This document shows positions 115 to 26,576 of a stretch of 64,000 nt of DNA, in pieces. Position numbers and translations under genes: made by a program. Origin of the DNA: an uncultured bacterium. GTDB lineage: Bacteria > Eisenbacteria > RBG-16-71-46 > CAIMUX01 > WJJG01. Below the pieces are notes generated by a model. The model was given only the letters and a program-made list of their open reading frames with translations. It made no database searches and was not told the DNA's origin. Location of the stretch: contig CAZTDY010000005.1 in assembly GCA_964612295.1 (NCBI GenBank), positions 1-64,000 on the forward strand. The letters run 5' to 3'. The stretch's first letter is position 1. Each line of letters starts with the position of its first letter.

Positions 115-233
115 ATTTCACCGATGAAGGAATTGAGAATGAGGAGGGAACATGAGATCGGCGTTTGTATTTCTATTCCTCCTGGGCATTGCATTGTCGG
201 CGCACGCCTCGGAGTCAGCCTACTTCTCTATCA

Positions 234-1211
234 ATGTCGAAGGAGAAGTCCCACATCCCAATTATCCCGCGCCAGGATTCATCAGGACGACGCTGGACAG
301 TCTATGCTGGATTGTTGGCACCCTGGAACCTGAGCCAACCGATTCGACCGAGTGGATCGGTGAGTGCGGGGAAGGTCTCGCCGGAGCAACTGCACTATTT
401 CCAGCTTCAGGAGCAGCTCCAGAAGGTCCGTCATGTGCGCGGGCTCGTGGAGGATCGGCTTGAGCGGGCATTCTCTTCGTACCAACGAGAGAAACCTACT
501 CCGGCCACAGATGTGTTCCATTGCCTGGTATGTGCCGGCGGCAGCGAGGGGCAGCGATCCATGGCGGAGCGGACGTTTGCAGCCGAGGACATGGCAACGG
601 ATTTCAAGGACGCTGTTCGCCAGTCCCAACCCATCGGCGACCGCGTGGAGAATGGTCTGCTCAGCTTGGTGGGGGAAGCCTCGCTGCTCCACCTGCTGCG
701 GGATGACTCTGCGCTAGAGTATCGAGATGGCGTGGAGCTGACCATCTGTCCGATCGGCCGCCGGCCCTGGTCGGATGACGATGATGATCCGATGATCCTG
801 GTTCAGCGGTGGCTACGCCGCCTACTCGGCTGTGGGCTGCCCGTGGAGATCTCCAAGAACGACGATCGTGGGCCGATACGGGTGAAAGGACTGGCGGCGC
901 AATCGCTCATTACCGCGATGGGGGGAACCCATCTGCTGCTCTGGGGATCTGCCGGCTTCACGCCGATTCGCATCGAAACCGAGGAAGGGCCCTCGACCGC
1001 ATCAACCCCTCCCAACAATGGCCCCCTAAGCCACCCTGTCAGCTATGTGTTCAACTGGGAGGAGCGGGGTAGAGAACTCCTGAGTCCGGTGGCCGATCTG
1101 CGTACCGGCTCTGTGTTGGTCAATCGGGATCCCTCCTACCTGCAGCGGCGAGTGTTCCTCCTGACTGCACTCGCAGTTCCGCCGGTGTTCCTTTCGGGGG
1201 AGGGGGTATGA
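234..1211 (+). CDS. Hypothetical protein, translationally coupled to the downstream ClpB-like ATPase through an ATGA overlap. The 5' end is uncertain: the alternative frame 152..463 carries a signal peptide and a strong RBS (see findings).
   Basis: Long ORF with high GC at third codon positions from about nt 370 onward. Its stop overlaps the start of the next gene. I recognised no domain. Confidence 0.5.
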   Translation: MSKEKSHIPIIPRQDSSGRRWTVYAGLLAPWNLSQPIRPSGSVSAGKVSPEQLHYFQLQEQLQKVRHVRGLVEDRLERAFSSYQREKPTPATDVFHCLVCAGGSEGQRSMAERTFAAEDMATDFKDAVRQSQPIGDRVENGLLSLVGEASLLHLLRDDSALEYRDGVELTICPIGRRPWSDDDDDPMILVQRWLRRLLGCGLPVEISKNDDRGPIRVKGLAAQSLITAMGGTHLLLWGSAGFTPIRIETEEGPSTASTPPNNGPLSHPVSYVFNWEERGRELLSPVADLRTGSVLVNRDPSYLQRRVFLLTALAVPPVFLSGEGV

Positions 1212-3469
1212 AGACCGTCCGTCTACCGATCCTCCTCCACGAGACGGCCGGGTTCCACACGGCCGTGCTGGTGGAAGACCATGAAGACCTCGCCGCCTAT
1301 GGATCAACGGAGTCCCAGGCTCTGAATCGACTACAGAAGTACTGTACATGGCGTGCGCGAACGGACTGGAAGTGGCTGGATAGCGACCTTGAGGATCCCA
1401 AGTTGGTGACCTTTGCAGTTCGCGTACACACAACATACCGGGAAGGGATTCGACTCTTTCCTGCCAAGGAACCCATCACCCTCCAAGTTCCCTGCGTGTA
1501 TGGAAAACACGCAAACGGTCTCGGATTCTGTTCGTTGCCAACCCTCGGGATCCGATTCTCCTATTTTCCGGAACGAGGGGCGCTGCGACGATTGGTGACC
1601 AGCTATGTCACGGAGAATCTCAAAGGTCTCACGCCACAGGAGGCCGCCCCGTTTCTCGGCCCAGATCGCGCCCGATTGGATACGCTTGTCGTGCGCGGGG
1701 AGTTCCGAGGTCGACCCGCGACTGATGATGATCAGCCCACGCTCACTGCCGTAGCTGAACCGCTGTTGCGTCGTGCCAGGGGAAGACGTCGCGGTGGTGT
1801 CTGGGAACGCGATCCGTTGATCGAGCAAGTGGCGTCACTTCTGCAGCGGGAACGATGCAGCGTCCTTCTTGTGGGCGACGGTGGTGTGGGCAAGACGACC
1901 ATCCTCACGGAAGCTGCCGGCTTGCTCATCTCGCGCCTGAAGAAGGATGGTCACACCGAAACCGAGAGCGGAAGACTGTTTTGGACGACAAATGCCGGGC
2001 GCCTCATTGCCGGTATGCGCTACCTTGGTCAGTGGCAAGAGCGCTGCGAGACGATCATCGAGGAACTCTCGCAACTGGATGGTCTGCTATGCATTGAGAA
2101 CCTCCTGGACTTGGCACGGGCGGGGGGGCGAGAACCGCGCGATAGCATCGCCGCCTTTCTCCACCACTACATCGAGCGAGGTGAATTGCGCTTGATCGCG
2201 GAGGCGACGCCGGCAGAGCTGGAGGCCGTGCGCCGATTGCTACCGGGGTTGAGCGACTCCTTCCACACCGTTCGAATTCCAGCTCTTGAGCCCGACGAGT
2301 CCATGCGGGTGCTTGGACAGATCGCGCTGACCGGTCAGCGCAGCCACCGGATCCAGTGGGATGGCACGCTGCCCCAGGTCATCCAAGCCCTCTTCAGCCG
2401 CTACGCATCCTACGGTGCCTTTCCAGGCAAGAGCAGCGAGTTCATGGTGAAACTCATCAATGAGGTGCGCCGGAAGTCGGTGAAGAGACTGACGGCCGAT
2501 CATGTCTATCGCATGTTCTCTCGCGACACGGGCCTCCCGGAGTCGATTCTCAGGGCGGATCAAACGCTCAATCCTGCGGATGTCCTCGAGAGCTTCCGAG
2601 CGCAGGTGATCGGCCAGGAAGCAGCGTGTCAGGCTGCCGCCGATCTCGTCACCGTCTTCAAGGCGGGGCTCAACGATCCTGGTCGCCCCATTGGGACGTT
2701 CCTCTTCTGTGGGCCCACGGGTGTGGGCAAGACCGAGATGGCCAAAGCTATGGCCCGCTACTTCTTCGGGCAGGGGCAGAAGGGCGAGCGCATGGTGCGC
2801 CTGGATATGAGCGAACTCTCCGGCCCCCTGGCGGGGGAGCGACTGATCGGAAGCCTCAGTGGGGAGCCGAGTGAGTTCATCCGGCAGATGCGGGCTGAGC
2901 CGTTCTCCATCGTGCTCTTCGACGAAATCGAGAAGGCCGCTCCTGAGGCGTTCGACGTCTTGCTCAGTGTTCTTGACGAAGGCCGCCTGGCCGATCCCTA
3001 CGGGCGGGTCACTTCCTTCCGGAGCGCCATCATCATCATGACGTCTAATATCGGGGCTGACACTCATCGCCCGGTCGGGTTCCACGAGGCCGGAACCGAG
3101 TCCTACGGTGGAGAAGTTCAGGCCTTCTTCAGGCCGGAGTTCGTCAACCGCATCGATCACATTGTGACCTTCAGCCCTCTAAGCCGGGCGGCAATTCGAG
3201 CCATCGCCCAAAAGGAGCTTCAGGAGGTTGTGAAGAGGGAAGGCCTGGCCGCCCGAGGCTTGCGCCTGAAGTGGAACGAAGACCTGGTGGATCTTCTGTG
3301 CTCCAAAGGTTATGACGAACGCTACGGGGCTCGTCCGCTGCTTCGGGCGATCGACAGCATTGTGGTGACACCGCTCTCACGGCTGCTGGTTGACGACCCG
3401 GAGTTGTGCGATTGTACGCTGGTCGTGAGCAGAAGATCGGACAGTCTGGCGGCCTTTGATCTCGAATGA
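1208..3469 (+). CDS. ClpA/ClpB-like class-1 AAA+ ATPase with two nucleotide-binding domains. It has no Clp_N domain; a roughly 200-aa N-terminal domain of unknown function is present instead.
   Basis: Walker A motifs 'LLVGDGGVGKTT' and 'FLFCGPTGVGKTEMAKAMA'. ClpB-type C-terminal 'GARPLLRAID' motif. SD GGAGGGGG precedes the ATG. Confidence 0.85.
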   Translation: MKTVRLPILLHETAGFHTAVLVEDHEDLAAYGSTESQALNRLQKYCTWRARTDWKWLDSDLEDPKLVTFAVRVHTTYREGIRLFPAKEPITLQVPCVYGKHANGLGFCSLPTLGIRFSYFPERGALRRLVTSYVTENLKGLTPQEAAPFLGPDRARLDTLVVRGEFRGRPATDDDQPTLTAVAEPLLRRARGRRRGGVWERDPLIEQVASLLQRERCSVLLVGDGGVGKTTILTEAAGLLISRLKKDGHTETESGRLFWTTNAGRLIAGMRYLGQWQERCETIIEELSQLDGLLCIENLLDLARAGGREPRDSIAAFLHHYIERGELRLIAEATPAELEAVRRLLPGLSDSFHTVRIPALEPDESMRVLGQIALTGQRSHRIQWDGTLPQVIQALFSRYASYGAFPGKSSEFMVKLINEVRRKSVKRLTADHVYRMFSRDTGLPESILRADQTLNPADVLESFRAQVIGQEAACQAAADLVTVFKAGLNDPGRPIGTFLFCGPTGVGKTEMAKAMARYFFGQGQKGERMVRLDMSELSGPLAGERLIGSLSGEPSEFIRQMRAEPFSIVLFDEIEKAAPEAFDVLLSVLDEGRLADPYGRVTSFRSAIIIMTSNIGADTHRPVGFHEAGTESYGGEVQAFFRPEFVNRIDHIVTFSPLSRAAIRAIAQKELQEVVKREGLAARGLRLKWNEDLVDLLCSKGYDERYGARPLLRAIDSIVVTPLSRLLVDDPELCDCTLVVSRRSDSLAAFDLE

Positions 3470-3541: not shown

Positions 3542-4198
3542 GTGTGGTGGGCCCATGCTATGAATCAACACGAGAAGTTGCATACGCACGGGAATGGCGC
3601 CGATGGACGGAAGGGTAGTCACGTGTCTAAGCCGAATCACAGGGCGGAATCCAGGCTGTTCCTCTGCCTCGACGATTTGCAGACAGCAGTTCGTCAGGGA
3701 GAGCGCTTCAGCTACGTCCTCTTCAGAGGACATCGTTCTCGCCGAGGCAGTGCGATCGGCCCGGAGTGCCTGTCCCAGTGGTATCATGCGGAATTCGTGG
3801 TGGATGATGTACCATACCCTACTGCCGAACACTTCATAATGGCGGAGAAGGCGCGATTGTTCGGAGATGCGGAATCGGAGAGGGCGATCCTCAGCGCCAC
3901 GTCGCCGGCTGCAGCCAAGCGATTGGGGAGGCAGGTGCGGGGTTTCAAGGAAGATCTCTGGCTGCGCCAACGCTTCGGCATCGCGGTGAGAGGTAATCGC
4001 GCGAAGTTTGGTCAGAATGGGGGACCGAAGAGATTTCTTCGCTCGACAGGCTCGAAGATCCTGGCCGAGGCCAGTCCTCACGACCGGATCTGGGGTATCG
4101 GACTTGGGCCGGGTGACCCCGGCGCGAAACACCCCCGCAAGTGGAAAGGTCTCAACCTGCTCGGTTTTGTGCTGATGCAAGTCAGACACGATCTTTGA
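3542..4198 (+). CDS. NADAR-domain protein (YbiA-like; ADP-ribose or riboflavin-intermediate N-glycosidase family).
   Basis: Motifs 'FRGH...WYHAEF...YPTAEHF(I)MAEKARLFGD', 'AKRLGRQVRGF' and 'DRIWGIGLG...NLLGFVLMQVR' are typical of NADAR/DUF1768. Confidence 0.75.
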   Translation: MWWAHAMNQHEKLHTHGNGADGRKGSHVSKPNHRAESRLFLCLDDLQTAVRQGERFSYVLFRGHRSRRGSAIGPECLSQWYHAEFVVDDVPYPTAEHFIMAEKARLFGDAESERAILSATSPAAAKRLGRQVRGFKEDLWLRQRFGIAVRGNRAKFGQNGGPKRFLRSTGSKILAEASPHDRIWGIGLGPGDPGAKHPRKWKGLNLLGFVLMQVRHDL

Positions 4199-4428
4199 GC
4201 ATGGGCCGGAGACCATAGTGACGGGAACATGGCGACGTGGCTCACCGCACTGACGTTCCGAATTTCCTGAAAACCCCGCCCCTTTCATCCCAAGACTACA
4301 ACCATGTGCCCATGCGCCCGTGACGATTTGGAGATCGCGACTTGATCGTGGCACATCACTTGCACAAAAGGGCGCCAGTGACAATTTGGCTCTGCTACCA
4401 GTCCAGCGGCGGCTGCAGGCAGTCCGAA

Positions 4429-4569
4429 ACAGGGGACACCCTGCCGAGGATGGGTTCCGAATGTCGTCCCGTGTCTGGTTTCTAACCTGGGGTGGGGCAC
4501 CATACAGAATGCCGAAAGGCGGCGCGGACAGTAAATCCGTTGGGGGTTCGATTCCCCTCCTCTGTTCCA
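4429..4569 (+). ncRNA. tRNA-like element with a canonical T-arm (GGGGGTTCGATTCCCCT), a 7-bp acceptor-like pairing (ACAGGGG / CCTCTGT) and an encoded CCA. At about 141 nt it is too long for a tRNA and too short for a tmRNA. It may be a degenerate tRNA/tmRNA fragment or a structured ncRNA.
   Basis: GGTTCGATTCC T-loop consensus at 4544-4554 and CCA at 4567-4569. It lies in a 780-bp gap with no credible ORF. The cloverleaf could not be completed by eye. Confidence 0.2.
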
Positions 4570-4979
4570 ACCAAGAGGTCCCTGGGGTGAACGGGGAAGA
4601 GCCTTCACCAGGCCGGGGTCCGATGCTCGGTTGCCGCGATCTGGGGGATCAGTGCCGCAGCTGCGCAAAGCGACCGCCGATCGGCGGCCGCGATGCACAC
4701 TGCGCGGATTGATCGCTGGATTCGCCGCTTCCAGGCGGGAGACCACACCCAAGCGCCTTGCAGCGTGAGGATGCCGGTCATGCGCACCATCTCGATTCGC
4801 GGGAGGGCCTTGAGTCTCCCGGAAAGCGAGAAGAGTCCGCATGACCTCAATCACGCTCCGCGCGACAGGTGAGGCAAGAGGTGACTGGATCTTCCCCGGG
4901 ATCCCGAAGGGTGTGGTGCAGTGGTGATCCAGGAGATGAGCGTGGACGAGGACGATCAACGCCGGAAAGGAGAGATAGG

Positions 4980-6086
4980 ATGTTCTTCCGAAAGAAGTTT
5001 ACGATTCCCAAGGACAGTTGTGGATTTCAGTTCGAAAAGGAGGAGTTCGTAGGGCTGCTGGAATCGGGCGATCACATGATCCGCACCTGGCGGCGCAGCC
5101 CGCGCGTTGAGCTCTCCTCGATGGCTTCCCCGTGGGTGTCGGACGTCGACCTGGAACAGGTTGTTCGCGCCGGAGCCTTCGATGAAAGAGTGCAAGTGCT
5201 GGACTTGAACGACTTCGAGCGCGGACTAGCCTGGGTGGACGGCCGCTTCGACCGTTTCCTGGGCCCCGGGCTGCACGCCGTTTGGACCAATGTGCGCGAT
5301 GTGCGGGTTGAACGCATCGACGCGCGTCTTCTGCGGCTTGCGCGCGATGATCTGGCGCTGCTGCTGAACGCGGCGGGTGCGGATGAGTTCCTTCAGAGCT
5401 TCCCTGTCCCGGAGAACTGGGTGGGGCTGCTGCATGTGAACGGCCAGTTCCGGGAAGTGCTGGACACTGGTCAGCACGTCTTCTGGAAGGGACTCGCCAA
5501 ACTGGAGGTCGAGCAAGTCTCGTTCAAGGAGTTCCAGCTCGACGTGTCCGGGCAGGACATCATGACCCGCGACAAGGTCACCCTGCGGGTGAATGCCGTG
5601 GTGACCGCGCGTGTTGATGATCCTAGGAAGTCCGTTGCAGTCAGTGAGGATGGACGGCAGGCGCTCTACAGAGAGGCTCAGCTCGCTCTGCGCACCGTCG
5701 TGGGCGGCCGGACCCTCGATGAGTTCCTGCAGGACAAGGAGCAGGTCGCGAACGAGTGGCGCCAATCGCTCGAGTCTGCGGCCGAGGCACTCGGGCTCGC
5801 ATTGCGCTCAGTCGGTGTCCGCGATGTCATCCTGCCGGGTGACATGAGGGAATTGCTGAACAAGGTCACCGAGGCGGCCAAGGCGGCCGAGGCCAACTTC
5901 ATCTCCCGGCGGGAGGAAACTGCTGCGATGAGGAGTCAGGCCAACACTGCCCGGCTGTTGGAGAACAACCCAACGCTGATGCGTCTCCGCGAGCTGGAGT
6001 CTCTTGAGCGAATCGCCAAGGAGTCCAACCTGCAGCTCGTCCTGGGCGAACAGGGGTTAGTGGAGCGGATCAGCAAGCTGCTGTAG
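4980..6086 (+). CDS. SPFH / band-7 (stomatin/prohibitin/HflKC-like) domain protein.
   Basis: Band-7 core plus a C-terminal coiled-coil ('...VILPGDMRELLNKVTEAAKAAEANFISRREE...'). SD AAGGAGAG lies 6 nt before the ATG at 4980. Confidence 0.8.
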   Translation: MFFRKKFTIPKDSCGFQFEKEEFVGLLESGDHMIRTWRRSPRVELSSMASPWVSDVDLEQVVRAGAFDERVQVLDLNDFERGLAWVDGRFDRFLGPGLHAVWTNVRDVRVERIDARLLRLARDDLALLLNAAGADEFLQSFPVPENWVGLLHVNGQFREVLDTGQHVFWKGLAKLEVEQVSFKEFQLDVSGQDIMTRDKVTLRVNAVVTARVDDPRKSVAVSEDGRQALYREAQLALRTVVGGRTLDEFLQDKEQVANEWRQSLESAAEALGLALRSVGVRDVILPGDMRELLNKVTEAAKAAEANFISRREETAAMRSQANTARLLENNPTLMRLRELESLERIAKESNLQLVLGEQGLVERISKLL

Positions 6087-6240
6087 ACTGGGCCCGGACC
6101 GAGGGCTGCCTGCGCCGTGATTGGGGCAGGTGGCCCCGGTCTGAGGCCGGCTCCGTTGATGTCACGAGCCACATGGAGTGACCTGCGTGGTCCGCGCGAC
6201 CGCGCTGTGTTGACGGATGGAAACCGCGAGGAGGTGAGGG

Positions 6241-6987
6241 ATGCTCGACCGAGAGCTTACCAGGGCGCCGATGAGAACAAGAACTCTCATCGTAGTGCTC
6301 CTCGCCTTGCTGCCTTTGGGTGGAGTGCTCCGCGCGCAGGATGATCGCCCGCACGCGGCTACCTATACCCACGCGCTCTCGACCGCACGGCAGATGAGGG
6401 ATACATTGCGCAGTCGTCTCGCGCAGGCTGAAACTGATTCCGCGCGAGCAGCGATTGAGGAGGAAGCAGGCAACCAGCTGACGTCAATCGTCTGCGAGAT
6501 TCTGCTGCCGGCATGGATCGATACCCCGTGGAGTTTCGATGGGATGACGGTTCAACCGGGCGAAGGCACCATCGCCTGCGGCTACTTTGTGACGACCCTT
6601 CTGAGGGACGCGGGATGTGCCCTGGATCGTATCAGACTGGCGCAGGTTCCGTCTGAGACGATGATCCGGGAACTGCTGGCACCGGAATCCATCCAGCGGT
6701 TCAGCGACACGCCGATTGATCGGTTCCTGCGATCGGTGCTTGAGTCGGGGCCTGGGCTCTTCATTGTCGGACTGGATTGCCACGTGGGGTTCATCCGGTG
6801 CGATGGCAGCAACGTGCGATTCGTCCATTCATCCTACATGTCGCCCTGGCGTGTTGTGGATGAACCGGCGCGCCAGTCGAGAATCCTGGCCGGGTCTCGG
6901 TATCGCGTTCTCGGGAAGCTGGCCAATGACGAGGTATTCCTGAACTCATGGCTCGTGGCTGAATCCGTACCTGCTGCACCCAGGTAG
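6241..6987 (+). CDS. Secreted hypothetical protein with a signal peptide. Conserved Cys and His residues hint at a possible papain-like/CHAP-like fold.
   Basis: N-terminal 'RTRTLIVVLLALLPLGGVLRAQ' and SD GGAGGTGAGGG. No confident domain match. Confidence 0.55.
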   Translation: MLDRELTRAPMRTRTLIVVLLALLPLGGVLRAQDDRPHAATYTHALSTARQMRDTLRSRLAQAETDSARAAIEEEAGNQLTSIVCEILLPAWIDTPWSFDGMTVQPGEGTIACGYFVTTLLRDAGCALDRIRLAQVPSETMIRELLAPESIQRFSDTPIDRFLRSVLESGPGLFIVGLDCHVGFIRCDGSNVRFVHSSYMSPWRVVDEPARQSRILAGSRYRVLGKLANDEVFLNSWLVAESVPAAPR

Positions 6988-7020
6988 GAGGGATGTCAGT
7001 GACAGCAGGGAGGACTCAAC

Positions 7021-7800
7021 GTGTCAGCTCACGACCGAATCGCAGACGTTCTCGCTTCAATTGAGAACTACGAAGACGTCCGCATCCTCTACGCCTGTGA
7101 GTCCGGGAGTCGTGGTTGGGGCTATCCGTCAAAGGACAGTGACTATGACGTCCGCTTTGTCTATGCCAAGCCTCTGGATTGGTATCTCGCGGTTGAGCTC
7201 GACCGCCAGTCCGATGTCATAGAACGAGGCGTGACCGGTGACCTGGATGTGAGCGGTTGGGATTTGAAGAAGACGCTGTTCTTGCTTGCGAAGTCGAATC
7301 CCCCGCTCCTCGAGTGGCTCAGCTCACCCATCGTCTACCATGATCGGGACGCGTTCGGAGCCCGCCTTCTCGAGTTGGCAAGCCAGACCTTCTCGGCGAA
7401 GGCCTCAGCCTACCACTACGGGCGAATGGCCAAGCAGAACCACGACCGGCTCCGGCGTGACCCCAACTGCTCTGCCAAGTTGCTCCTCTACATTCTCCGG
7501 CCTCTCTTCGCGCTTCGCTGGCTGGCGGAGCGAAGGGCCATCGTGCCCATGTCATTCGACACAATGGTGGAGAGTTGCTCTGATGATGAATCGGTCAAGA
7601 CCGCCATCCGGGACCTTGTTGACAGGAAGCGATCAGGCGACGAAGGGGATCGAGCGAGAGACCATACCCGGATTCTTGAATTCATCGATCAGGAGATTGA
7701 ACGAGTCGACGAGGCAATCACATCCCACGACGGTCAGCCCGCGGGTTTCGAGGCTGTGAACCGGTTCTTCAGGAGCGAGCTGCAGCGCGTGTGGGCCTGA
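7021..7800 (+). CDS. Predicted nucleotidyltransferase of the RlaP / pfam10127-like family, which often accompanies RNA ligases.
   Basis: 'LYACESGSRGWGYPSKDSDYDVRFVY' is a Pol-beta-superfamily NTase signature (GS...D.D). GTG start with SD AGGGAGGA. Confidence 0.65.
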   Translation: MSAHDRIADVLASIENYEDVRILYACESGSRGWGYPSKDSDYDVRFVYAKPLDWYLAVELDRQSDVIERGVTGDLDVSGWDLKKTLFLLAKSNPPLLEWLSSPIVYHDRDAFGARLLELASQTFSAKASAYHYGRMAKQNHDRLRRDPNCSAKLLLYILRPLFALRWLAERRAIVPMSFDTMVESCSDDESVKTAIRDLVDRKRSGDEGDRARDHTRILEFIDQEIERVDEAITSHDGQPAGFEAVNRFFRSELQRVWA

Positions 7801-7832
7801 GATCGCCGAAGCGTGGAAACGTTGGGCGCCAG

Positions 7833-9257
7833 CTACTCGCCATCCTCGGACATATCCCGCCGGTAGGCCTTCACCTCTTCACGAGCCAGATTCAACCCTT
7901 CAACGAGGTCGGAAATCACCCCATCCAATTGGGCCTCGTAGCAGCGGTCTAGGATTGGTCCGAAGTGTGGTCCTGGGGCCAGCCCAAGCTGGATCAGATG
8001 CCGACCCATGACGATGGGGACTGGGCCACACTGTTCGACCTCTAAGTCGCGAGCTTTCTCGATCAGCCATTCTCCCGCAGGGAACGTGTCAACCGTGCGT
8101 GGGGGCCGGCCACGCTGATCGGCCTTGGCGACGCGAACCAGCCGATCGATCCGCCCAACCCGCCTCGCCAGGCGCCGGATGGCAGGTGCCTGCGACTTGC
8201 TGTCGTACAGCTCGACCGGGCTCAGGTGATTCCTGACGAGGGGCACCACCTGTTCAGCAAGGTCGCTTTGTCTCGTCAGCCGGGCCAAGAAGCTGCGCGT
8301 GGGCTCCTCCCCGCGCCCCTCGTGCCCATGAGATCGATACCGACCGTTGGCGAACTCGGTCGTAGCAGGCTTGCCGAAGTCGTGGCACAGCACCGCGAAG
8401 CCGACCACCAAGTCCTCCCAGGCTTCGCCAACCCGCTCTTCGGCATAAGCGTTCAGACAGTGCAGGGTGTGATTCCAGACGTCGCCTTCGGGGTGCCAGC
8501 CTGGATCCTGTGGGCAGTCGATCAGTGCGGCCAGCTCCGGGAAGTAGTGTACCCAGCCGGTATCACGCAGGAAAGCAAGCCCCCTGGAGATGCGCACGCC
8601 CTTGAGGATGAGCTTGCGCCACTCTTCGAGAAGCCGCTCCGAAGGCAGCCCTTCAGGCTCGATTCCGCGGCACAGCTCAATGGTCTCCGCGGCGGCCTCC
8701 AAGTCGAAGCGCGCAGCAAACTGCATTCCCCGCAGAACACGTAACGGATCCTCGGCGAATTGATGGGACACGTGGCGCAGGATTCCCAATTCCAGATCGC
8801 GGCGTCCGTGATAGTGATCGATCACCTCGAAGGTGAGTGGATCAAATGCGATCGTGTTTATCGTGAAATCGCGCCGCGTAGCTGCCTCCGCCACGGTCAT
8901 GTTGGGGTCCGAGAGGATCTGGAATCCGCGGTGGCCCCGCCCGGCTTTCGATTCTCTGCGGGGAATGGAAACGTCGATCTCGAGTCCTGACAGCTTCACG
9001 ACGCCGAAGGACCTACCGACGAGATCCAACTTGAATTGCTGCTCCAATCCTGCGAGCAGGTCCTCCGCCGGGACGCCATAGGCCTCGATGTCGATATCGC
9101 GCGCTGCGTGGTTGAGGAGGGCGTCGCGAACGGAGCCGCCCACGATAAGGGCGCGGCCTCCGAGATCACGCGTCAATCGGCACACGGAGTCGACTGCCGC
9201 CTCGAGCGGCGGATCATCGAGTTTCAGTCTGAAGGGTGACGTATGTGTCATGGTCAC
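7833..9257 (-). CDS. cca: CCA-adding enzyme: tRNA nucleotidyltransferase with a C-terminal HD domain.
   Basis: 'LIVGGSVRDALL...DIDI' polymerase-beta head, 'RRDFTINTIAFD', and an HD motif 'LCHDFGK'. GTG start with SD AGGAG. Confidence 0.8.
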   Translation of the reverse strand: MTMTHTSPFRLKLDDPPLEAAVDSVCRLTRDLGGRALIVGGSVRDALLNHAARDIDIEAYGVPAEDLLAGLEQQFKLDLVGRSFGVVKLSGLEIDVSIPRRESKAGRGHRGFQILSDPNMTVAEAATRRDFTINTIAFDPLTFEVIDHYHGRRDLELGILRHVSHQFAEDPLRVLRGMQFAARFDLEAAAETIELCRGIEPEGLPSERLLEEWRKLILKGVRISRGLAFLRDTGWVHYFPELAALIDCPQDPGWHPEGDVWNHTLHCLNAYAEERVGEAWEDLVVGFAVLCHDFGKPATTEFANGRYRSHGHEGRGEEPTRSFLARLTRQSDLAEQVVPLVRNHLSPVELYDSKSQAPAIRRLARRVGRIDRLVRVAKADQRGRPPRTVDTFPAGEWLIEKARDLEVEQCGPVPIVMGRHLIQLGLAPGPHFGPILDRCYEAQLDGVISDLVEGLNLAREEVKAYRRDMSEDGE

Positions 9258-9418
9258 GATGGCTCCTGCAGCATACGATCTGCATAGCCTAGCATTGCTG
9301 TCGGTTCTTGGTCCAACTCCGAAGCCGATTCTGACGAAAATGATGCGCGCCGGAGGGCAATACCGAAGGGTATGATTGCCACGCAGCCGATTGAGCGTTG
9401 GATGCAGAGGATGGTGTG

Positions 9419-9976
9419 ATGTCGACGAGGAAGTTCATCATATTCGATCTCGAAGCCACCTGTTGGGAAAAGGGCTCCTGGCCCGACAGAATGGAGATCA
9501 TCGAGATTGGGGCGGTGCGGGTCCGCGAGGATGACTGGAGCTGTGAGGACGAGTTCTCACGCTTCGTCCAACCTATTGGAGAACCGATCCTGAGTGACTT
9601 CTGCATGACGCTGACCGGCATCCGGCAGGAGGATGTGGATGAGGCGAAGTCCTTCCCCGAGGTTCTGAACGAGTTTCTTCGCTGGACGGGGACCGGGGAA
9701 CAGGTCTGGATGTCGTGGGGAATGTACGATAGGCGACAGATCGAGCATGACTGTCGCCGGCATCGCATCGCTGTGCCTCAGATCCTTGAATCGCACATGA
9801 ACCTGAAGGCCATCTTCACAGAGGTCACCGGGGTACGCAGAGCCGGGATGAAACGAGCCCTGCAGGTGCTGGGGCTGCCCTTGGAGGGGTCGCACCACCG
9901 CGGTCTGGATGACGCTCGAAACATCGTTGCAATCGGCAAGAAGGTGTGGCCTGAGTATCAGCGTGATGCTGAGTGA
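9419..9976 (+). CDS. DEDDh-family 3'-5' exonuclease (DnaQ / ERI-1 / KapD-like).
   Basis: Exo motif I 'FIIFDLEATC', motif II-like 'WMSWGMYDRRQIE', and motif III 'HRGLDDARN'. Confidence 0.75.
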   Translation: MSTRKFIIFDLEATCWEKGSWPDRMEIIEIGAVRVREDDWSCEDEFSRFVQPIGEPILSDFCMTLTGIRQEDVDEAKSFPEVLNEFLRWTGTGEQVWMSWGMYDRRQIEHDCRRHRIAVPQILESHMNLKAIFTEVTGVRRAGMKRALQVLGLPLEGSHHRGLDDARNIVAIGKKVWPEYQRDAE

Positions 9977-10020
9977 TGTTCTGGGGACGAGAGACAGCTG
10001 GTTGAGGGGGGAGCCCTGCT

Positions 10021-10875
10021 ATGGCACTCCGGGGCCGAGAACTACGAGCCGCAATCGCGCGAGAGACAGTGGAGATTCTCTTGCGGGGTCACTACGGATT
10101 GCCATCTGGTGATCGCGTTGAGATAGGCAGAGAACGGGATAGTTGCGTAGCAGACACACGCCACTTCAGGCCGGCGGAATTGAACCAGGTGTTGGCGCAA
10201 GCTAAAATGGCCTCAGCGGGTCATCAGCAGATGCTGGTGGAGGTCAGAGAGGAATCAACACTCTTGGCCGCGCAGTCCCTGTCGGTGGAATGCGACGAGG
10301 CGCGTATTGGCGTGCTGAACTTCGCCTCGGCAAGGCATCCGGGGGGCGGTTTCCTGAAGGGGGCCGACGCGCAAGAGGAGTCGTTGGCCCGAAGCTCGGG
10401 ACTATACCTGAGTCTTCTAGAGTGTCGGACATATTACGACGGCCAACGAGGATCCCGGGATGGCCTGAACACGGATGACATGATCTGGTCGCCTGAATGC
10501 CCCGTGGTGCGCGATCATGACGGGACGTTGTTGGACCGGCCGTATCTCGTCGACTTCATCACGAGCACAGCGCCCAATGTTTCGTCGAGGGCTGCAAAGC
10601 GGCAGCCAGCGCCATCAGAGGTGCTTGAGGCGCTGAAGCTGCGGATCGGCAAGATTCTGGCTCTCGCTGCACACCACGAGTGTACTCACTTGGTGTTGGG
10701 AGCCTGGGGCTGTGGTGTGTACGCGAATGATCCCACGGAGGTGGCAGCAGCCTTCTACGGCCACCTCAGGCCCAAGAAAGGGATGTTCTGGGGCCGATTC
10801 GAAAAGGTGATCTTCGCGATCGCGCCGGACGGTCCGAAGCGCAATCTCGACTGTTTCCGCCGGCGATTCTGCTAA
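10021..10875 (+). CDS. Bacterial-type poly(ADP-ribose) glycohydrolase-like macrodomain protein (DUF2263 / TIGR02452 family).
   Basis: 'HPGGGFLKGADAQEESL' matches the PARG catalytic signature GGG-X6-8-QEE within a macro-like fold. Confidence 0.7.
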   Translation: MALRGRELRAAIARETVEILLRGHYGLPSGDRVEIGRERDSCVADTRHFRPAELNQVLAQAKMASAGHQQMLVEVREESTLLAAQSLSVECDEARIGVLNFASARHPGGGFLKGADAQEESLARSSGLYLSLLECRTYYDGQRGSRDGLNTDDMIWSPECPVVRDHDGTLLDRPYLVDFITSTAPNVSSRAAKRQPAPSEVLEALKLRIGKILALAAHHECTHLVLGAWGCGVYANDPTEVAAAFYGHLRPKKGMFWGRFEKVIFAIAPDGPKRNLDCFRRRFC

Positions 10876-10896
10876 GAGAGACGATAGGATCGACAG

Positions 10897-11538
10897 ATGG
10901 AACCCAAGAGAGTCAAGTACCCGCGCACACCTCATCTCCCATGGTCGCCCGGGCGAACCAGCGACGATGTTCTGATCGAATCGCTAAGTGCCCTCAGAGC
11001 GCAAACTGAGGTCGTCGTCACGGAGAAGCTTGATGGAGAGAACACAACGCTCTACCGCGATCGGCTTCACGCTCGAAGCATTGACTCCAGCGCACACGAG
11101 TCGCGTGACTGGGTGAAGGCGCTTCATGCGCGTGTTCGGCACCAGATCCCCTCCAGCATGCGGGTATGCGGAGAGAACGTGTTTGCAGTTCACAGCATCG
11201 AGTATGATGCCCTTCCTTCGTTCTTCTTGGCATTCGGGATCTACGTGGATGAGCAGTGCATCGCGTGGGACGACACAGTGAAATGGGCCGCCAAGCTCGG
11301 GCTTTCGCACGTGCCGGTTCTCTACCGGGGGCCGTGGACGGATGCCGCAATCCAAGCCTGCTGGCAAGGCGTGTCAGCATTTGGCCCCGAACAAGAGGGG
11401 TATGTAGTGCGTGCGGTAGGCGACTTCGCAATGGCTGACTTCGGGTCGCGCGTTGCCAAGTACGTGCGCCCTTGTCACGTGACCTCTGAGAAGCACTGGA
11501 AGGCGGGGCCAGTCCGGCGAAACCGTCTTGCCCGCTGA
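10897..11538 (+). CDS. ATP-dependent RNA ligase (pfam09414 RNA_ligase-like, small Rnl family).
   Basis: N-terminal 'KYPRTPHLPWS' and nucleotidyltransferase motif I 'EKLDGEN' (KxDG). About 213 aa. Confidence 0.7.
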   Translation: MEPKRVKYPRTPHLPWSPGRTSDDVLIESLSALRAQTEVVVTEKLDGENTTLYRDRLHARSIDSSAHESRDWVKALHARVRHQIPSSMRVCGENVFAVHSIEYDALPSFFLAFGIYVDEQCIAWDDTVKWAAKLGLSHVPVLYRGPWTDAAIQACWQGVSAFGPEQEGYVVRAVGDFAMADFGSRVAKYVRPCHVTSEKHWKAGPVRRNRLAR

Positions 11539-11847: not shown

Positions 11848-14800
11848 ATGAGTTCTGGCGCACTCACATTCATCATTGCATGCACCTTCGTCGTGGGCAT
11901 GTTGATCTATCGGCTGATCGAGGGATCGCAGCGGAATCGCCCCCCTGAATTGCTAGATGAGGAGACCCCCAGTATGCCAGAGGAGAACTCGTCGAATCCA
12001 CGGTTGCAGGCGATCAAGAACGCGATGCCTCTGTTTGAGAGCGAGTTCATTCTACCGTCCGAGCTTGAAGAGGTCTATGCTTTCGAGTCGACAATGGCCA
12101 AGCTGAATGAGGCCTACTCGCAGGCGGACCTAGAGGGCCTCCTGATCAATGCAGACGTGCGGGTAACATGCCTGGTTCTGGCAGCACTGGCTCGCAGATC
12201 AGATGAGGATCTTCAAACCCACAAGGTTCTCCGCCAACTAGATATCAACAACACCTTCGTTACCCACTTCTGTCTGCAGACGCTGCTCAAGCGCGTTCCT
12301 CCGGAGACTCCTCTAGTCGGGGCGGTGATTTCCCGCAATCTGGACTCATGGACGGGGGACTTCCAGGCGCTACTCGATGATTTCATCGAGCAGCGCGTCG
12401 AACAAGGCGAGGAGATATCCGAAGAGACGCTTTTCCCCACGAGTCCGTCGCTGAGTGAGGAAGGCCGAACACAGCTGCTGCTAGTCCTCAAGCGAGCACA
12501 TCCACGCTCGTACAGGCGAGTCAGCAAAGAGCTGTCGAGGTTCGGGGCAAAGCCAGGGCATCGTGAGGAGGTTTCCCAAGGGGCGGAAACCGAGTTTTCG
12601 TTGGGGCGGGTCTGGAGCAAACGAACACTGGGCGACCATGGTTTCATTGACCACGAACAGACAAGTGAACCGCTTGAGCGCCTGGTTGAGAGCCTGAAGA
12701 AGGGTCGCCATAGCTCATTCGTGATTGCGGGCCAGCCCGGCGTAGGCAAGACGAGTCTGATTCGCGAAATCGCCAGGAGAGTAAGCGGGAAGCTGCGTTT
12801 CCTGGAGGTTGCTCAGGATGAACTGGTCGCCGGCGAAGGATTGATGGGAACGATGGAGAAGCGCCTTCAGACCCTTCTCGCTGAACTTGCCGAGGACGGT
12901 GAGACTGTGCTGTACCTGCCCGATATCCACGAGTACGTGTGGGCCGGACAGCACATGCACAGCACCGTCGGTCTGCTCGACCTTCTCATGAGGGCGATGG
13001 AGTCTCGAGGGCTCATCGTGATTGGAGAAACTGATCAACTAGGCCTGGAGCAGCTCTTGAGGGACCGTCCTAGGGCCAAGGATCACTTTCAGATCGAACG
13101 GCTGACATCCGTGACGCCGGAAGTCGCGCTGGATGTTGCCTTGCAGAGTATCCAGCGGCGACATGAACGCCATGCCGGCCCGACGATCTCGCAAGAGGTT
13201 GTCCGGGAGGCAGCTCAGCTTGCCAGTCAGTACATGAGCGATCTCGGGGCGCCAGGCAGTGTGCTTCGATTGCTCAATCTTGCGATCGATCAAAGAACGA
13301 AAGGCGCTCGGCGTGTTATTGACGTCGAGGTTTCTCGGGACGACGTCATGGAAGCCCTCAGGGTCCTCACTGGTCTTTCAGCTGTTGTCCTTGATGACCA
13401 GCTCAAGCTCAACCTCGACCGTACGAACAGCTTCTTCGAGAAGAGGGTTCTGGGGCAACCCGAGGCGACAACATGCCTCATTGACCGAATCGCAATGATC
13501 AAGGCCGGCTTGGGTGATTCAACTCGACCTTTGGGCGTGTTCTTGTTTGCCGGACCTACTGGAACCGGGAAGATCGAGCTGGCTAAGGCGCTGGCGGAGT
13601 TTCTCTTCGGCGATCCCAACCGAATGGTGCGGCTCGACATGAGCGAACTTCAGTCGCACGATGCAATGGCAAGGATTTTCGGAGGCGCCCAGAGGGATGC
13701 GTCCGGTGCATCCTTGACCGAGCGGATCAGACAGCAACCGTTCTCCGTAGTCCTTCTCGACGAGTTCGAGAAGGCCCCCGCTGAAGTCTGGAACATGTTC
13801 CTCCAGGTCTTCGATGACGGTAGGCTAACTGACAATGCAGGCCGAACGGCAGATTTGCGCCATGCGATCATAATCCTGACTACTAACCTAGGGGGCAAGA
13901 TACCTGGTGGAGCGACGCTGGGCTTCACGAAGGATCATTCAGACTTCAGGCCCGAGGCCGTAGAACGTGCGATCATCGACGCGTTTCCGAGGGAGTTCTT
14001 CAATCGCATCGATCGTATGCTTGTTTTCCGCCCCCTGAGCCGGCAGACCATGCGGCAGATCCTCGACAAGGAGTTGAAGGATGTGTCGCGTCGGCGAGGG
14101 CTCCGTTGGCGTGATTGGGCGATCGAGTGGGATGAGAGCGCGTTCGAGTTCTTGCTTGAAAGGGGAATCACCAGGGATCTTGGGGCCAGACCCTTACGTC
14201 GGGCGATCGAACGCTACTTCCTGACTCCTCTTTCCAGGCTGATCGCGCAGGGGCAGGCGCCGCACGGGGATCAGTTCCTCTTTGTCCGCGCAAAGCGAGG
14301 ACAGCTGGTTCTTGATTTCGTTGATCCCGACGCACCCTTTGGCGAGGTCGAGGAGAGTGCGCGCGTTCATGGGAGCGAGCGCAGCAGCGATGAAGATGTT
14401 CCGGTCGAAGAGGTCGTCTGCAATCCACGAGGAGTCCCCAGTGAGGTGACCGCTCTCGAGAGACGTTGCCAGCCACTGCGTGAGACCATCGCGGGGGATC
14501 AATGGTCGGAACGCAAGACAGAGTCTATGGGACGGATGTCAGAGCCGGGCTTTTGGGACTCGGACGATCGTTTTCGCATCCTGGGTGAGGTGGAGTTCCT
14601 CGACCGTGCTGAACGAGTGTTCGCGCGGACCGAGTCGCTTCTTGCGCGGCTTCAGGGGCGATCTGAGCGTAGCCTCATCGATCGTAAGCTGGTGAGGCAG
14701 GTGGCCCAGAACCTCTACTTGCTCGAGACGGCTTGCACGGACTTTGAGGACGACCGGCCTCAGGAGGCTTTCCTGCAAATCGAGGTTGCCCTGCAAGAGC

Positions 14801-15321
14801 ACGGTGAGGACCGTCTGAAGAGCGCGATGAACTGGGGTCAGGACCTGTGCACGATGTATCGTTCCTGGGCCAAGAAGCGTGGCATGCACTGGCAAGAGCT
14901 TGACCGAGGAACTGGCGATCGGGCGCACAATCGAGAGCTATTCGCCGTATCTGGTTTTGGTGCGCACTCCATTCTCGCACCGGAAGCCGGGCTCCATGTT
15001 CTTGAGATGCCGCGTGAAAACGAGCCCGGAGTTGATCGATGCAGGGTTCGGGTGTGCGTTGCACCTCATACGGGACAGCCGCCTGCAGGTGCGTCGCCCG
15101 CCGAAAGAAGCAGGGAGCTCCTTGCCAGAGCCAAGGCTGCATTTGCGGACCAATCCACCGAGGGGCTCACGGTGGTGCGAAGCTACCGTCGTGGGGAAAC
15201 TCCGTCGACTCGAGACGCTGTCCGAGGCTGGCGCACAAGCAAGGTCGAACGCGTGCTGGCAGGAGACTTTGACGTGATAGGAGCGTCATCCAGCAATGCC
15301 GACCCTCAGCTGCGGGAATGA
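11848..15321 (+). CDS. Membrane-anchored ClpB-like double-AAA+ ATPase fused to a C-terminal release-factor-like module (RF domain 2 and C-terminal helix present, GGQ domain absent).
   Basis: N-terminal hydrophobic helix 'ALTFIIACTFVVGMLIY'. Walker A motifs 'IAGQPGVGKTS' and 'FLFAGPTGTGKIELAKALA', plus 'GARPLRRAIERY'. The C-terminal roughly 190 aa ('AFLQIEVAL...MYRSWAKKRGMHWQEL...AGLHVLEM...RCRVRVCVAP ... VVRSYRRGETPST...VERVLAGDFDVIG') aligns with RF2 'FLEIQAG...MYLRWAE.RGFK.E...GVHRLVR...RHTSFSSAFVYP ... [13 protein letters not shown]...[12 protein letters not shown]'. Confidence 0.8.
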   Translation: MSSGALTFIIACTFVVGMLIYRLIEGSQRNRPPELLDEETPSMPEENSSNPRLQAIKNAMPLFESEFILPSELEEVYAFESTMAKLNEAYSQADLEGLLINADVRVTCLVLAALARRSDEDLQTHKVLRQLDINNTFVTHFCLQTLLKRVPPETPLVGAVISRNLDSWTGDFQALLDDFIEQRVEQGEEISEETLFPTSPSLSEEGRTQLLLVLKRAHPRSYRRVSKELSRFGAKPGHREEVSQGAETEFSLGRVWSKRTLGDHGFIDHEQTSEPLERLVESLKKGRHSSFVIAGQPGVGKTSLIREIARRVSGKLRFLEVAQDELVAGEGLMGTMEKRLQTLLAELAEDGETVLYLPDIHEYVWAGQHMHSTVGLLDLLMRAMESRGLIVIGETDQLGLEQLLRDRPRAKDHFQIERLTSVTPEVALDVALQSIQRRHERHAGPTISQEVVREAAQLASQYMSDLGAPGSVLRLLNLAIDQRTKGARRVIDVEVSRDDVMEALRVLTGLSAVVLDDQLKLNLDRTNSFFEKRVLGQPEATTCLIDRIAMIKAGLGDSTRPLGVFLFAGPTGTGKIELAKALAEFLFGDPNRMVRLDMSELQSHDAMARIFGGAQRDASGASLTERIRQQPFSVVLLDEFEKAPAEVWNMFLQVFDDGRLTDNAGRTADLRHAIIILTTNLGGKIPGGATLGFTKDHSDFRPEAVERAIIDAFPREFFNRIDRMLVFRPLSRQTMRQILDKELKDVSRRRGLRWRDWAIEWDESAFEFLLERGITRDLGARPLRRAIERYFLTPLSRLIAQGQAPHGDQFLFVRAKRGQLVLDFVDPDAPFGEVEESARVHGSERSSDEDVPVEEVVCNPRGVPSEVTALERRCQPLRETIAGDQWSERKTESMGRMSEPGFWDSDDRFRILGEVEFLDRAERVFARTESLLARLQGRSERSLIDRKLVRQVAQNLYLLETACTDFEDDRPQEAFLQIEVALQEHGEDRLKSAMNWGQDLCTMYRSWAKKRGMHWQELDRGTGDRAHNRELFAVSGFGAHSILAPEAGLHVLEMPRENEPGVDRCRVRVCVAPHTGQPPAGASPAERSRELLARAKAAFADQSTEGLTVVRSYRRGETPSTRDAVRGWRTSKVERVLAGDFDVIGASSSNADPQLRE

Positions 15322-25937: not shown

Positions 25938-26576
25938 TCACACGATTTGACTGCTGCCGCAGCTGCGGACGCCGGCCTCCTGCATGCAGACGAGTGCTGT
26001 CTCGAGCGAACCATCCAGATCGATGGCCCGACACGCATCCTCGACGAGGAGGACGTCGAAGCCCAGGCGCCGAGCATCCATCGCAGAGTAGTAGACGCAG
26101 AAGTCCGTGGCCAGACCGGCCAAGAAGACACGCGCTACCCCCAGCTCCTTGAGCGCCGCGCCCAGGCCGGTGGGGCTCTGGCGGTCATTCTCGAAGAAGC
26201 CTGAGTAGGAATCGATCGCCGGATCGGTGCCCTTACGAATCGTCAGGCGAGCCGCGGTGGTGAAGAGGAGCGGGTGGAACTCCGCACCCCGCGTCCCTTG
26301 CACGCAGTGATCCGGCCAGAGCGTCTGCGGTCCGTAGGAGGTGTCGACCTGCTGATATGGCTCCTGATCGGCATGACCAGAGGCGAAGGACGAGTGGTGC
26401 CGGGGGTGCCAGTCCTGGGTCAGCACGACGGAGCGGAAGCAGGGCATCAGGCGGTTGATCACCGGCACGACCAATTCACCGTCGGGGACCGCCAGAGCAC
26501 CGCCGGTGCAGAAGTCGTTTTGCACGTCGACGACCAGAAAGGCGTCGCGGGACGGATCGGGCTGTAGGCGATTCAC
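25938..26576 (-). CDS. pncA: Nicotinamidase (isochorismatase family).
   Basis: 'AFLVVDVQNDFCTGGALAV', 'TQDWHPRHHSSF' and 'LAGLATDFCV'. GTG start with SD GAGGAAG. The longer ATG-initiated ORF would overlap the upstream gene and is rejected. Confidence 0.8.
   Translation of the reverse strand: MNRLQPDPSRDAFLVVDVQNDFCTGGALAVPDGELVVPVINRLMPCFRSVVLTQDWHPRHHSSFASGHADQEPYQQVDTSYGPQTLWPDHCVQGTRGAEFHPLLFTTAARLTIRKGTDPAIDSYSGFFENDRQSPTGLGAALKELGVARVFLAGLATDFCVYYSAMDARRLGFDVLLVEDACRAIDLDGSLETALVCMQEAGVRSCGSSQIV

Follow-up and report, generated by a model that had tools for sequence, protein, structure and literature searches.

A candidate assembly of RNA-repair and ADP-ribose-processing modules in the genome of an uncultured member of the Eisenbacteria

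RNA repair in biological conflict has been described as a 'syntax' in which a ligase is combined with the nucleotidyltransferase RlaP and with a Band-7 scaffold that is accompanied by a tRNA-like RNA (Burroughs and Aravind, NAR 2016, as quoted in 10.1101/312249 and PMC12776372). RlaP has been shown to add one or two nucleoside monophosphates to the 3'-OH ends of RNA, and it restores aminoacylation of over-resected tRNA after ligation (PMC12776372). Bacterial poly(ADP-ribose) glycohydrolases (PARGs), for their part, strip ADP-ribose from RNA, acting on the 2'-OH (the product of RhsP2) as well as on 5'-phosphate ends, and they shield cells against RhsP2; NADAR proteins, YbiA weakly, take guanine-linked ADP-ribose off RNA (PMC11833690). 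In the same work, hydrolysis of poly(ADP-ribose) or RNA-linked ADP-ribose is shown only for SCO0909, DRB0099 and human PARG (PMC11833690). An association of NADARs with RNA repair has also been noted previously (PMC9503650). Genes of both kinds stand together at positions 3,542 to 11,538 of a 64,000-nucleotide stretch (hereafter the window, meaning the whole of it) of contig CAZTDY010000005.1, assembly GCA_964612295.1, from an uncultured bacterium of the Eisenbacteria.

An earlier note on this DNA had read the eight genes from a NADAR protein to an RNA ligase as a compact island able to trim, rebuild, de-ADP-ribosylate and religate damaged RNA ends. All of the island open reading frames (ORFs) that it named are present at their coordinates, its domain calls all pass profile searches against Pfam and NCBIfam, and the motifs that it quoted (KYPRTPHL, EKLDGEN and the PARG catalytic loop) are there. 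It overlooked a candidate tRNA-like RNA at 4449-4574. The features from which the comparison starts are listed here.

3542..4198, forward strand: NADAR-family protein, YbiA-like (PF08719, E=6.6e-47; TIGR02464, 145 bits against a cutoff of 73.7; PADLOC PDC-M42C, E=1e-39)
4449..4574, forward strand: divergent or degenerate tRNA-like element with a 5' leader motif (covariance model match)
4575..4979, forward strand: noncoding leader, from the tRNA-like element to the SPFH gene (MAFFT alignments)
4980..6086, forward strand: SPFH/Band-7 protein ('slipin'), 368 residues, cytoplasmic (PF01145, E=4.9e-26)
7021..7800, forward strand: RlaP nucleotidyltransferase, RNA 3'-end extender (PF10127, E=7.4e-80; phrog_14344, E=8e-66)
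7833..9257, reverse strand: class-II CCA-type tRNA nucleotidyltransferase with a C-terminal HD domain (PF01743 PolyA_pol head, E=2.2e-16)
9398..9976, forward strand: ERI-1-like DEDDh 3'-5' exoribonuclease (PF00929, E=9e-25; KapD NF005838, E=1e-24)
10021..10875, forward strand: bacterial-type PARG (PF10021, E=5.4e-43; TIGR02452, 265 bits; GGG-X8-QEE intact)
10897..11538, forward strand: minimal ATP-dependent RNA ligase of the DRB0100 family, 213 residues, nucleotidyltransferase domain only (PF09414, E=4.7e-34)

Our preferred reading, to which we assign a probability of roughly 0.55, is that at least three modules, each recurring independently within the modular RNA-repair systems associated with conflict, have been brought together in this segment in a lineage-specific way. 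Module A (4449-7800) would comprise the degenerate tRNA-like RNA with its long leader, a soluble cage-type SPFH protein and RlaP. Module B (9398-11538) would be an operon of the ERI-like 3'-5' exoribonuclease, the bacterial PARG and the minimal ATP-dependent RNA ligase, and module C (7833-9257) would be the CCA-type nucleotidyltransferase with its HD phosphoesterase domain. The modules are functionally themed neighbours and not one conserved operon. Taken singly, the pieces are RNA-repair modules of known kinds, while their exact combination is absent from the other loci examined; the locus is a variant of known modular RNA-repair systems, notable for joining a Band-7/tRNA-like/RlaP module with a PARG-ligase module.

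Gene spacing suggests a partition into transcription units. An ORF of 348 residues, a ClpB-like gene and the NADAR gene appear to form one unit, and the RNA leader, the SPFH gene, a hypothetical gene (6241-6987) and, 33 nucleotides further on, the RlaP gene another. The CCA gene stands alone on the opposite strand, the exonuclease, PARG and ligase genes follow each other with gaps of 44 and 21 nucleotides, and a second ClpB-like gene lies apart. RlaP is 3.1 kb from the ligase and in a separate transcription unit.

Part of the evidence for recurrent modules comes from 160 comparison loci of other organisms in which homologues of the window genes were sought. Eighty of these surround SPFH orthologues (about 50% identical; mostly Planctomycetota, with some Acidobacteriota, Desulfobacterota and Verrucomicrobiota) and 80 surround ligase orthologues from metagenomes (50-56% identical). 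By tblastn, homologues of RlaP, the CCA enzyme and PARG were found near SPFH in three, two and one loci, respectively; the ligase, NADAR, the exonuclease, the ClpB-like proteins and the hypothetical protein were found there in none. Near the ligase, CCA homologues occur in four loci (directly downstream in two, at 42-43% identity), PARG in two and the exonuclease in one, together with RlaP-type genes in five to six and a WGR-PARP in two, plus one further context. The island genes therefore do co-localise elsewhere, in pairs, and the suspicion that their homologues might never be neighbours in related genomes can be set aside. When the neighbours of the 80 SPFH genes were clustered, RtcB (7), RtcA (5) and RtcR (8) were recovered, and beyond these only the RNA element was common. 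Conservation takes the form of pairwise links between genes, which make up a network of the kind typical for modular repair systems. RlaP, PF09414 ligases and bacterial PARGs are sporadic and usually single-copy, which makes the presence of all three within about 4.5 kb very unlikely by chance; we infer that they are clustered beyond chance in what would be a multi-megabase genome.

How does the locus compare with the systems described so far? As in the systems of Burroughs and Aravind, the window has a soluble Band-7 protein, here following a candidate tRNA-like RNA, an RlaP and an RNA ligase, in a modular and shuffled arrangement. It differs in that the window ligase is a minimal ATP-dependent PF09414 enzyme rather than RtcB, the tRNA-like element is degenerate, no kinase, phosphatase or methylase that would modify RNA ends is present, and the additions are an ERI-like exonuclease, a PARG, a NADAR and a CCA enzyme.

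Module B has its closest counterpart in Deinococcus. A search of plasmid records located it on the MP1 megaplasmid of D. radiodurans, where an 'RNA ligase family protein' (53% identical to the window ligase) adjoins a TIGR02452 protein (41%) and an AAA/kinase gene comes next; these genes form the DRB0100-DRB0099-DRB0098 operon, which encodes ligase, PARG and HD phosphatase/polynucleotide kinase. In both organisms, ligase and PARG are directly adjacent on the same strand. However, the order is inverted in the window, where PARG precedes the ligase across a 21-nucleotide gap, whereas the Deinococcus genes overlap; the DRB0098 HD phosphatase/kinase gene is absent from the window, and the third position is held by the ERI-like DEDDh gene, which heads the operon. 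The Deinococcus operon, in contrast to the window, is without Band-7, RlaP or tRNA-like neighbours.

The combination of a Band-7/RlaP module with ADP-ribose-processing enzymes is found again in the planctomycete Adhaeretor mobilis HG15A2 (locus L031 of our set). One strand there carries an array of 30 tRNA genes, a canonical b7a (Band-7-associated) tRNA element (117.8 bits), SPFH and two RlaP genes; the other carries KptA/Tpt1, Macro, Nudix, an ARH-type ADP-ribosylglycohydrolase, a PARG (about 43% identical to that of the window) and the nicotinamidase PncA. The canonical b7a-tRNA, the 30 tRNA genes, KptA/Tpt1, Macro, Nudix and ARH are peculiar to A. mobilis, which, within 10 kb, is without the PF09414 ligase, the ERI exonuclease, the CCA enzyme, NADAR and the ClpB-like flanks. 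This juxtaposition is independent evidence for selection that brings the Band-7/RlaP module and ADP-ribose/NAD enzymes together. The A. mobilis PncA gene (19675-20271) adjoins PARG, and its product is 50% identical to that of the window gene at 25938-27059. In the window, a pair of NAD salvage genes lies about 13 kb from PARG: a nicotinate phosphoribosyltransferase (24448-25908, reverse strand) and this isochorismatase-family nicotinamidase (25938-27059, reverse strand).

More distant parallels exist. The Rsr(Ro60)-YrlA/YrlB-RtcB-RtcA operon of Salmonella and its relatives likewise brings together a repair ligase, a scaffold protein and a tRNA-mimicking noncoding RNA, but its scaffold is TROVE/Ro and not SPFH, its ligase is RtcB, and it has no ADP-ribose enzymes. 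The NAD-dependent end-healing route (2H - KptA/Tpt1 - Macro/NADAR), T4 Pnkp-Rnl1 and bacterial Pnkp-Hen1 resemble the window as ligase-centred repair of cleaved tRNA, and in the NAD-dependent route, as proposed for the window, Macro/NADAR enzymes deal with ADP-ribose by-products or adducts. Unlike these routes, the window has no KptA, 2H, kinase or Hen1, and its macrodomain is a PARG-type glycohydrolase rather than the Appr-1''-p phosphatase type of the NAD-dependent route. Finally, the eukaryotic vault (major vault protein (MVP), vault RNA, TEP1 and PARP4) offers a structural likeness: from end to end, through beta repeats, SPFH shoulder and long helix, the SPFH model aligns with MVP, and the window SPFH protein is paired with a candidate small structured RNA beside ADP-ribose enzymes, much as in the vault. 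The window protein has only three repeats in 368 residues and is about 14% identical to MVP, its assembly into a cage would be hypothetical, and the ADP-ribose enzyme of the vault is a transferase and that of the window a hydrolase; this is a resemblance only.

The tRNA-like RNA was recognized from its T-arm, GGGGTTCGATTCCCC, which is perfect at 4543-4557 within a noncoding stretch of about 780 nucleotides before the SPFH gene. A proximal tRNA-like T-arm lies upstream of SPFH on the same strand in 69 of the 80 SPFH loci, usually by 260-600 nucleotides, and some loci without the simple motif still hold a strong element by covariance model. The class corresponds to the 'Band-7-associated tRNA' predicted by Burroughs and Aravind (2016), which was unvalidated as of 2018 (10.1101/312249). 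In the b7a consensus the D-arm is invariant, the anticodon and T stems covary and the acceptor stem has only 3 bp; compensatory changes occur in 11 of 17 pairs, and the 'anticodon' varies freely, non-standard ones included. R1, a covariance model derived from 45 b7a elements together with the 5' leader conserved among them, matches window positions 4449-4574 over its full length with 28.8 bits (E ~2e-7), the runner-up in 9 kb scoring 3.9 bits; canonical b7a elements score 70-128 bits and the ordinary tRNAs of neighbouring arrays 21-57 bits. The window element has a short D-arm and no variable loop. Its offset of -435 nucleotides from the SPFH start falls within the usual range of -260 to -600, and it occupies the syntenic site at which SPFH orthologues carry their b7a-tRNA.

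Simpler identities for this stretch were considered and rejected. A canonical tRNA gene before SPFH was discounted, as ARAGORN found none at default settings and its relaxed folds never use the real T-arm. No known Rfam family matched the gap of about 780 nucleotides at gathering thresholds, and the only Rfam hit there is a local match to the T-arm. In the window element neither program found a full cloverleaf, in which the acceptor stem has 7 bp and the D-arm is canonical, and the minimum free energy fold of 4440-4585 is no better than that of shuffled sequence (z=0.76). A 130-residue ORF at 4320-4712 was dismissed as a gene, having no family match and overlapping the RNA element.

The leader that follows is also partly shared. 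Orthologous leaders keep conserved blocks up to the ribosome-binding site, and the window retains these in part in MAFFT alignments; a block at about 4846-4905, CCTCAATCACGCTCCGCG...GGTGAC, resembles the orthologous block GCTCAAACG.CACTCCGC...GTGA. RNAalifold gave essentially no local fold for the conserved 3' block. In the SPFH loci (L007-L086), b7a is embedded in a leader of about 500 nucleotides whose conserved blocks extend from about 100 nucleotides before b7a to the SPFH start codon: a 5' block (GTGTTCCG..GGGTTCTGAC), a hairpin whose loop is rich in purines, and a 3' block (GCTCAAACG.CACTCCGC...GTGA...CCCGACGG). The 5' and 3' blocks have words in common rather than complementarity, and no fold was established for them. 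A degenerate element is seen about 450 nucleotides before SPFH in a member of the Thermoguttaceae (L075), whose SPFH protein is the orthologue nearest to that of the window (57% identical). Its T-arm, ACC tail and downstream hairpin are kept, while one long hairpin stands in place of the D and anticodon arms, suggesting that the T-arm is the most constrained part of the element. Long same-strand tRNA arrays of up to 40 genes lie directly before many planctomycete SPFH/b7a loci (L007, L010, L012, L021, L024, L026, L031 and others, 0.5-7 kb upstream), typically with tRNA-Cys last and an HNH-like ORF embedded; the window is without such an array. These arrays resemble the cyanobacterial 'L-arrays', in the description of which the text makes no mention of an SPFH neighbour (PMC8421152).

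The SPFH protein probably starts at M38 of an ORF that opens at 4869, that is, at 4980, as both gene callers and orthologues indicate. It has 5177 homologues, about 52% identical and mostly from Planctomycetota. Three N-terminal beta-repeat units are followed by the SPFH domain and a long helix, with no transmembrane segment. An AlphaFold2 model (predicted local distance difference test (pLDDT) 84.3) matches stomatin and HflK/C over about 240 columns in Foldseek and major vault protein over about 400 columns, full length, at E ~1e-10. As modelled, the protein is consistent with a soluble cage-like SPFH oligomer. For RlaP, which has homologues in jumbo phages, no relative was found in the PDB at the sequence level.

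In module B, the exonuclease, for which gene callers give 185 residues and a start at about 9419, has the exoribonucleases ERI2, ERI1 and ERI3 as its best PDB relatives. The PARG aligns with Thermomonospora curvata PARG (3SIG) over its full length at 213 bits and with that of D. radiodurans at 168 bits. Its 'HPGGGFLKGADAQEES' falls on the catalytic 'HPGGGFLSGAHAQEEG' of the T. curvata enzyme, and GGGFLKGADAQEE on the catalytic loop, so that the macrodomain signature GGG-X6-8-QEE is present. Throughout the family alignment of the ligase, K44 (the motif I lysine), E167/G168 and K188 do not vary. The AlphaFold2 model of the ligase (pLDDT 93.8) has NgrRnl, T4 Rnl2 and TbREL1, the nucleotidyltransferase domains of nick-sealing RNA ligases, as top Foldseek matches; no PDB relative was found at the sequence level.

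The wider ligase family has varied company. In 10 of the 80 metagenome loci a Pnk-like AAA_33 kinase is fused to the ligase or adjoins it (L161, 10004-11731, and nine more), and a Bacillus cereus plasmid (L178, 3013-4627) shows the same association; the window ligase is stand-alone. Contexts annotated with Pfam include a Metallophos phosphoesterase overlapping the ligase start and an arrangement of HD_4, ligase and WGR-PARP. A recurring phage-like neighbourhood contains HD_4, a conserved unknown protein, PARG, the ligase and, about 2-3 kb downstream, WGR-PARP (L150, 518-7277; L093, about 12324-12767; the P0197 contig), which ties the ligase family to the synthesis of poly(ADP-ribose) as well as its removal. 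The annotated phage neighbourhoods of the ligase (CcrSC, Phosso) hold only hypothetical proteins and are uninformative.

The CCA-type enzyme shows the motifs H..HD, RRD ('RRDFTIN') and EDxxR ('EDPLRVLR'), and its HD domain scores 21.0 bits, just short of the 22-bit cutoff. Against its best NCBIfam equivalog, NF008137 ('multifunctional CCA addition/repair'), it reaches 196 bits with a cutoff of 451. Judged from its sequence, specificity for CCA, as opposed to A-adding or poly(A) activity, is putative. Its nearest homologues are 60-67% identical and are spread over several phyla.

These parts can be placed in a hypothetical pathway. Toxins or stress would nick, resect or ADP-ribosylate structured RNAs, chiefly tRNAs. 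ADP-ribose could then be taken off 2'-OH or 5'-phosphate ends by PARG and off guanine by NADAR, as shown for members of these families. The ERI-like exonuclease and the HD domain might clean the 3' end to a 3'-OH, whereupon RlaP would restore one or two nucleotides and the CCA enzyme would rebuild the 3' terminus, by analogy with what is established for their families. From its modelled fold and motifs, the ligase would seal 3'-OH/5'-phosphate nicks. The SPFH oligomer and the tRNA-like RNA could serve as scaffold, decoy or sensor, as predicted in the literature. In such a pathway, clearance of ADP-ribose from a 5'-phosphate by PARG would regenerate a ligase substrate, and no kinase would be needed for that class of lesion.

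A number of observations weigh against the reading of the segment as an assembly of repair modules. As a whole, the island was found in nearly identical metagenome contigs of that one organism and nowhere else. Its gene order was not found conserved in other genomes with SPFH, ligase or CCA as anchors, and we rejected conserved eight-gene synteny on that comparison; none of the 160 loci combines more than two window genes. The tRNA-like element scores at the level of a generic tRNA and below the canonical copies, which suggests that it is divergent and possibly decaying. Neither the island nor the window ORFs scanned contain a polynucleotide kinase, Metallophos, 2H, RtcA, RtcB, Hen1 or KptA/Tpt1. 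Without kinase, 2H, KptA and RtcB the island alone could not fully heal 5'-OH/2',3'-cyclic-phosphate breaks, and its only candidate 3'-end healer is the weak HD domain of the CCA enzyme. The toolkit proposed earlier thus stands in part: its enzymes fit the published repair 'syntax', but its end-healing kit is incomplete, with no 5' kinase, KptA/Tpt1 or 2H. A counter-toxin rather than a housekeeping role for the locus is putative.

The same lack of conservation as a unit is what would be expected if the grouping were partly a coincidence, such that the real units are only the tRNA-like RNA with SPFH (and perhaps RlaP) and the exonuclease-PARG-ligase operon, with no integrated eight-gene pathway. 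The CCA gene would then be an ordinary housekeeping cca, as the unrelated, housekeeping-like neighbourhoods of the four nearest homologues looked up (62-63% identical) suggest, and it lies on the opposite strand; yet CCA genes occur near the ligase in four of 80 loci, twice directly downstream, a frequency much higher than chance would give for a single-copy gene. NADAR would be a YbiA-type metabolite N-glycosidase or a member of the upstream ClpB-like operon: it scores above the TIGR02464 cutoff for riboflavin-intermediate N-glycosidases, and its spacing, 73 nucleotides past the ClpB-like gene and about 780 before SPFH, suggests that it may belong to that upstream unit. We group NADAR as a looser associate of the island, although the previously noted link between NADARs and RNA repair (PMC9503650) argues for its inclusion. 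The 248-residue hypothetical protein and the ClpB-like proteins, which would be unrelated, are without homologues around all 160 comparison loci, and the remaining window genes form an ordinary chromosomal context in ORF scans. Against this reading, A. mobilis independently sets a Band-7/RlaP module beside a large ADP-ribose module. We regard partial coincidence as rather unlikely, though it deserves serious weight. Less probable still is that the exonuclease-PARG-ligase operon acts on DNA or RNA-DNA junctions, in break repair under poly(ADP-ribose) signalling, with the RNA-repair genes as separate neighbours. Rnl2/DraRnl-type ligases accept nicked duplexes with DNA strands, the Deinococcus case involves radiation induction, and a WGR-PARP, a break-sensing type of ADP-ribosyltransferase, is present at some ligase-family loci. 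However, the ligase fold is nearest to nick-sealing RNA ligases, the ligase family is fused to Pnk-type kinases and has RlaP and CCA enzymes as neighbours, and the exonuclease is nearest to ERI exoribonucleases. Bacterial PARG does cleave ADP-ribose from 5'-phosphate ends of DNA as well as RNA (PMC11833690), but the immediate neighbours of the window operon are RNA-specific (RlaP, CCA, tRNA-like RNA), and there is no PARP in the window.

A defence or counter-defence island acquired horizontally, for example from a phage, in which the ClpB-like proteins and NADAR are anti-phage and the repair genes shield host RNA from the host's own or incoming effectors, seems very improbable to us. PADLOC does match NADAR to PDC-M42C and a ClpB-like protein to DolB and PDC-M37B, RlaP and the ligase belong to strong PHROG families with jumbo-phage homologues, and the ligase, CCA and PARG families are highly identical between distant phyla. 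Against this, G+C content (about 61% in the window) and skew are even across island and flanks, with no compositional break; at the island we saw neither integrase nor transposase genes, and neither a tRNA attachment site nor direct repeats; the DolA partner of DolB is absent, and scans of window ORFs brought up neither a toxin nor an ADP-ribosyltransferase.

If the segment is an assembly of recurrent repair modules, it bears on two lines of work so far treated apart, namely the RlaP/Band-7/tRNA-like repair systems and the reversal of RNA ADP-ribosylation by PARG and NADAR. The window locus and the richer locus of the cultivable A. mobilis place both together. This juxtaposition favours RNA as the target of the PARG-ligase pair familiar from Deinococcus and suggests testable substrates, tRNAs with 2'-O- or 5'-phosphate-linked ADP-ribose; the locus is also an entry point to the still unvalidated Band-7-associated tRNA-like RNA. 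The concept itself is already in the literature, but with the locus and its A. mobilis counterpart the connection of RNA repair with RNA de-ADP-ribosylation becomes open to direct testing. A bolder version, which we think improbable, is that SPFH and the tRNA-like RNA form a cytoplasmic cage ribonucleoprotein that organizes the repair of ADP-ribosylated, resected structured RNAs by PARG/NADAR, ERI, RlaP/CCA and ligase. If true, this particle would correspond in bacteria to the vault of eukaryotes (MVP, vault RNA and PARP4), and it would give an RNA-directed function to the long-enigmatic DRB0098-0100 operon of Deinococcus.

Around and within the island lie further genes.

165..1211, forward strand: hypothetical ORF, 348 residues, its stop overlapping the start of the ClpB-like gene (1208) by 4 nucleotides
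1208..3469, forward strand: ClpB-like double AAA+ ATPase, 753 residues, upstream flank (AAA_2, E=1e-36; ClpB_D2-small, E=3.7e-15)
6241..6987, forward strand: orphan hypothetical protein, 248 residues, with a hydrophobic, signal-like N-terminal segment
11848..15321, forward strand: ClpB-like double AAA+ ATPase, 1157 residues, downstream flank (AAA_2, E=7e-41)

The protein at 6241-6987 matched no family in Pfam, NCBIfam, PHROGs or PADLOC and is probably unrelated cargo. Gene callers start NADAR at about 3560. The 348-residue ORF had no match in Pfam, NCBIfam, PADLOC or PHROGs and no tblastn match in plasmids; it is probably part of the flank, outside the repair kit. PADLOC gave partial matches of the upstream ATPase (1208-3469) to DolB (74 bits) and PDC-M37B. 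A Dodola identity (DolA and DolB) was rejected for lack of a DolA (DUF6414) partner, as the adjacent 348-residue ORF matches nothing in PADLOC or Pfam. That ORF and the first ClpB-like gene (165-3469), perhaps together with NADAR and its PDC-M42C match, may be an uncharacterised two- or three-gene system apart from the repair genes.

The ClpB-like ATPases reported on both sides of the island are borne out by profile matches at 1208-3469 and 11848-15321, and the two proteins are paralogues, 34% identical over 549 residues. The downstream one has an N-terminal hydrophobic segment and a C-terminus that resembles domains 1-2 of release factor 2 (PCRF, 30 bits, profile positions 10-174 of 194), with a tail like the release factor C-terminus. 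Its translation contains no GGQ motif; we found no plasmid homologues of the release factor-like domain and, in the literature searched, no description of such a fusion with ClpB. Release factor 2 structures match this C-terminal domain at E ~1e-4, and at E<1e-30 its family counts 196 cluster representatives, many of which have about 1100-1200 residues and carry the domain at the C-terminus.

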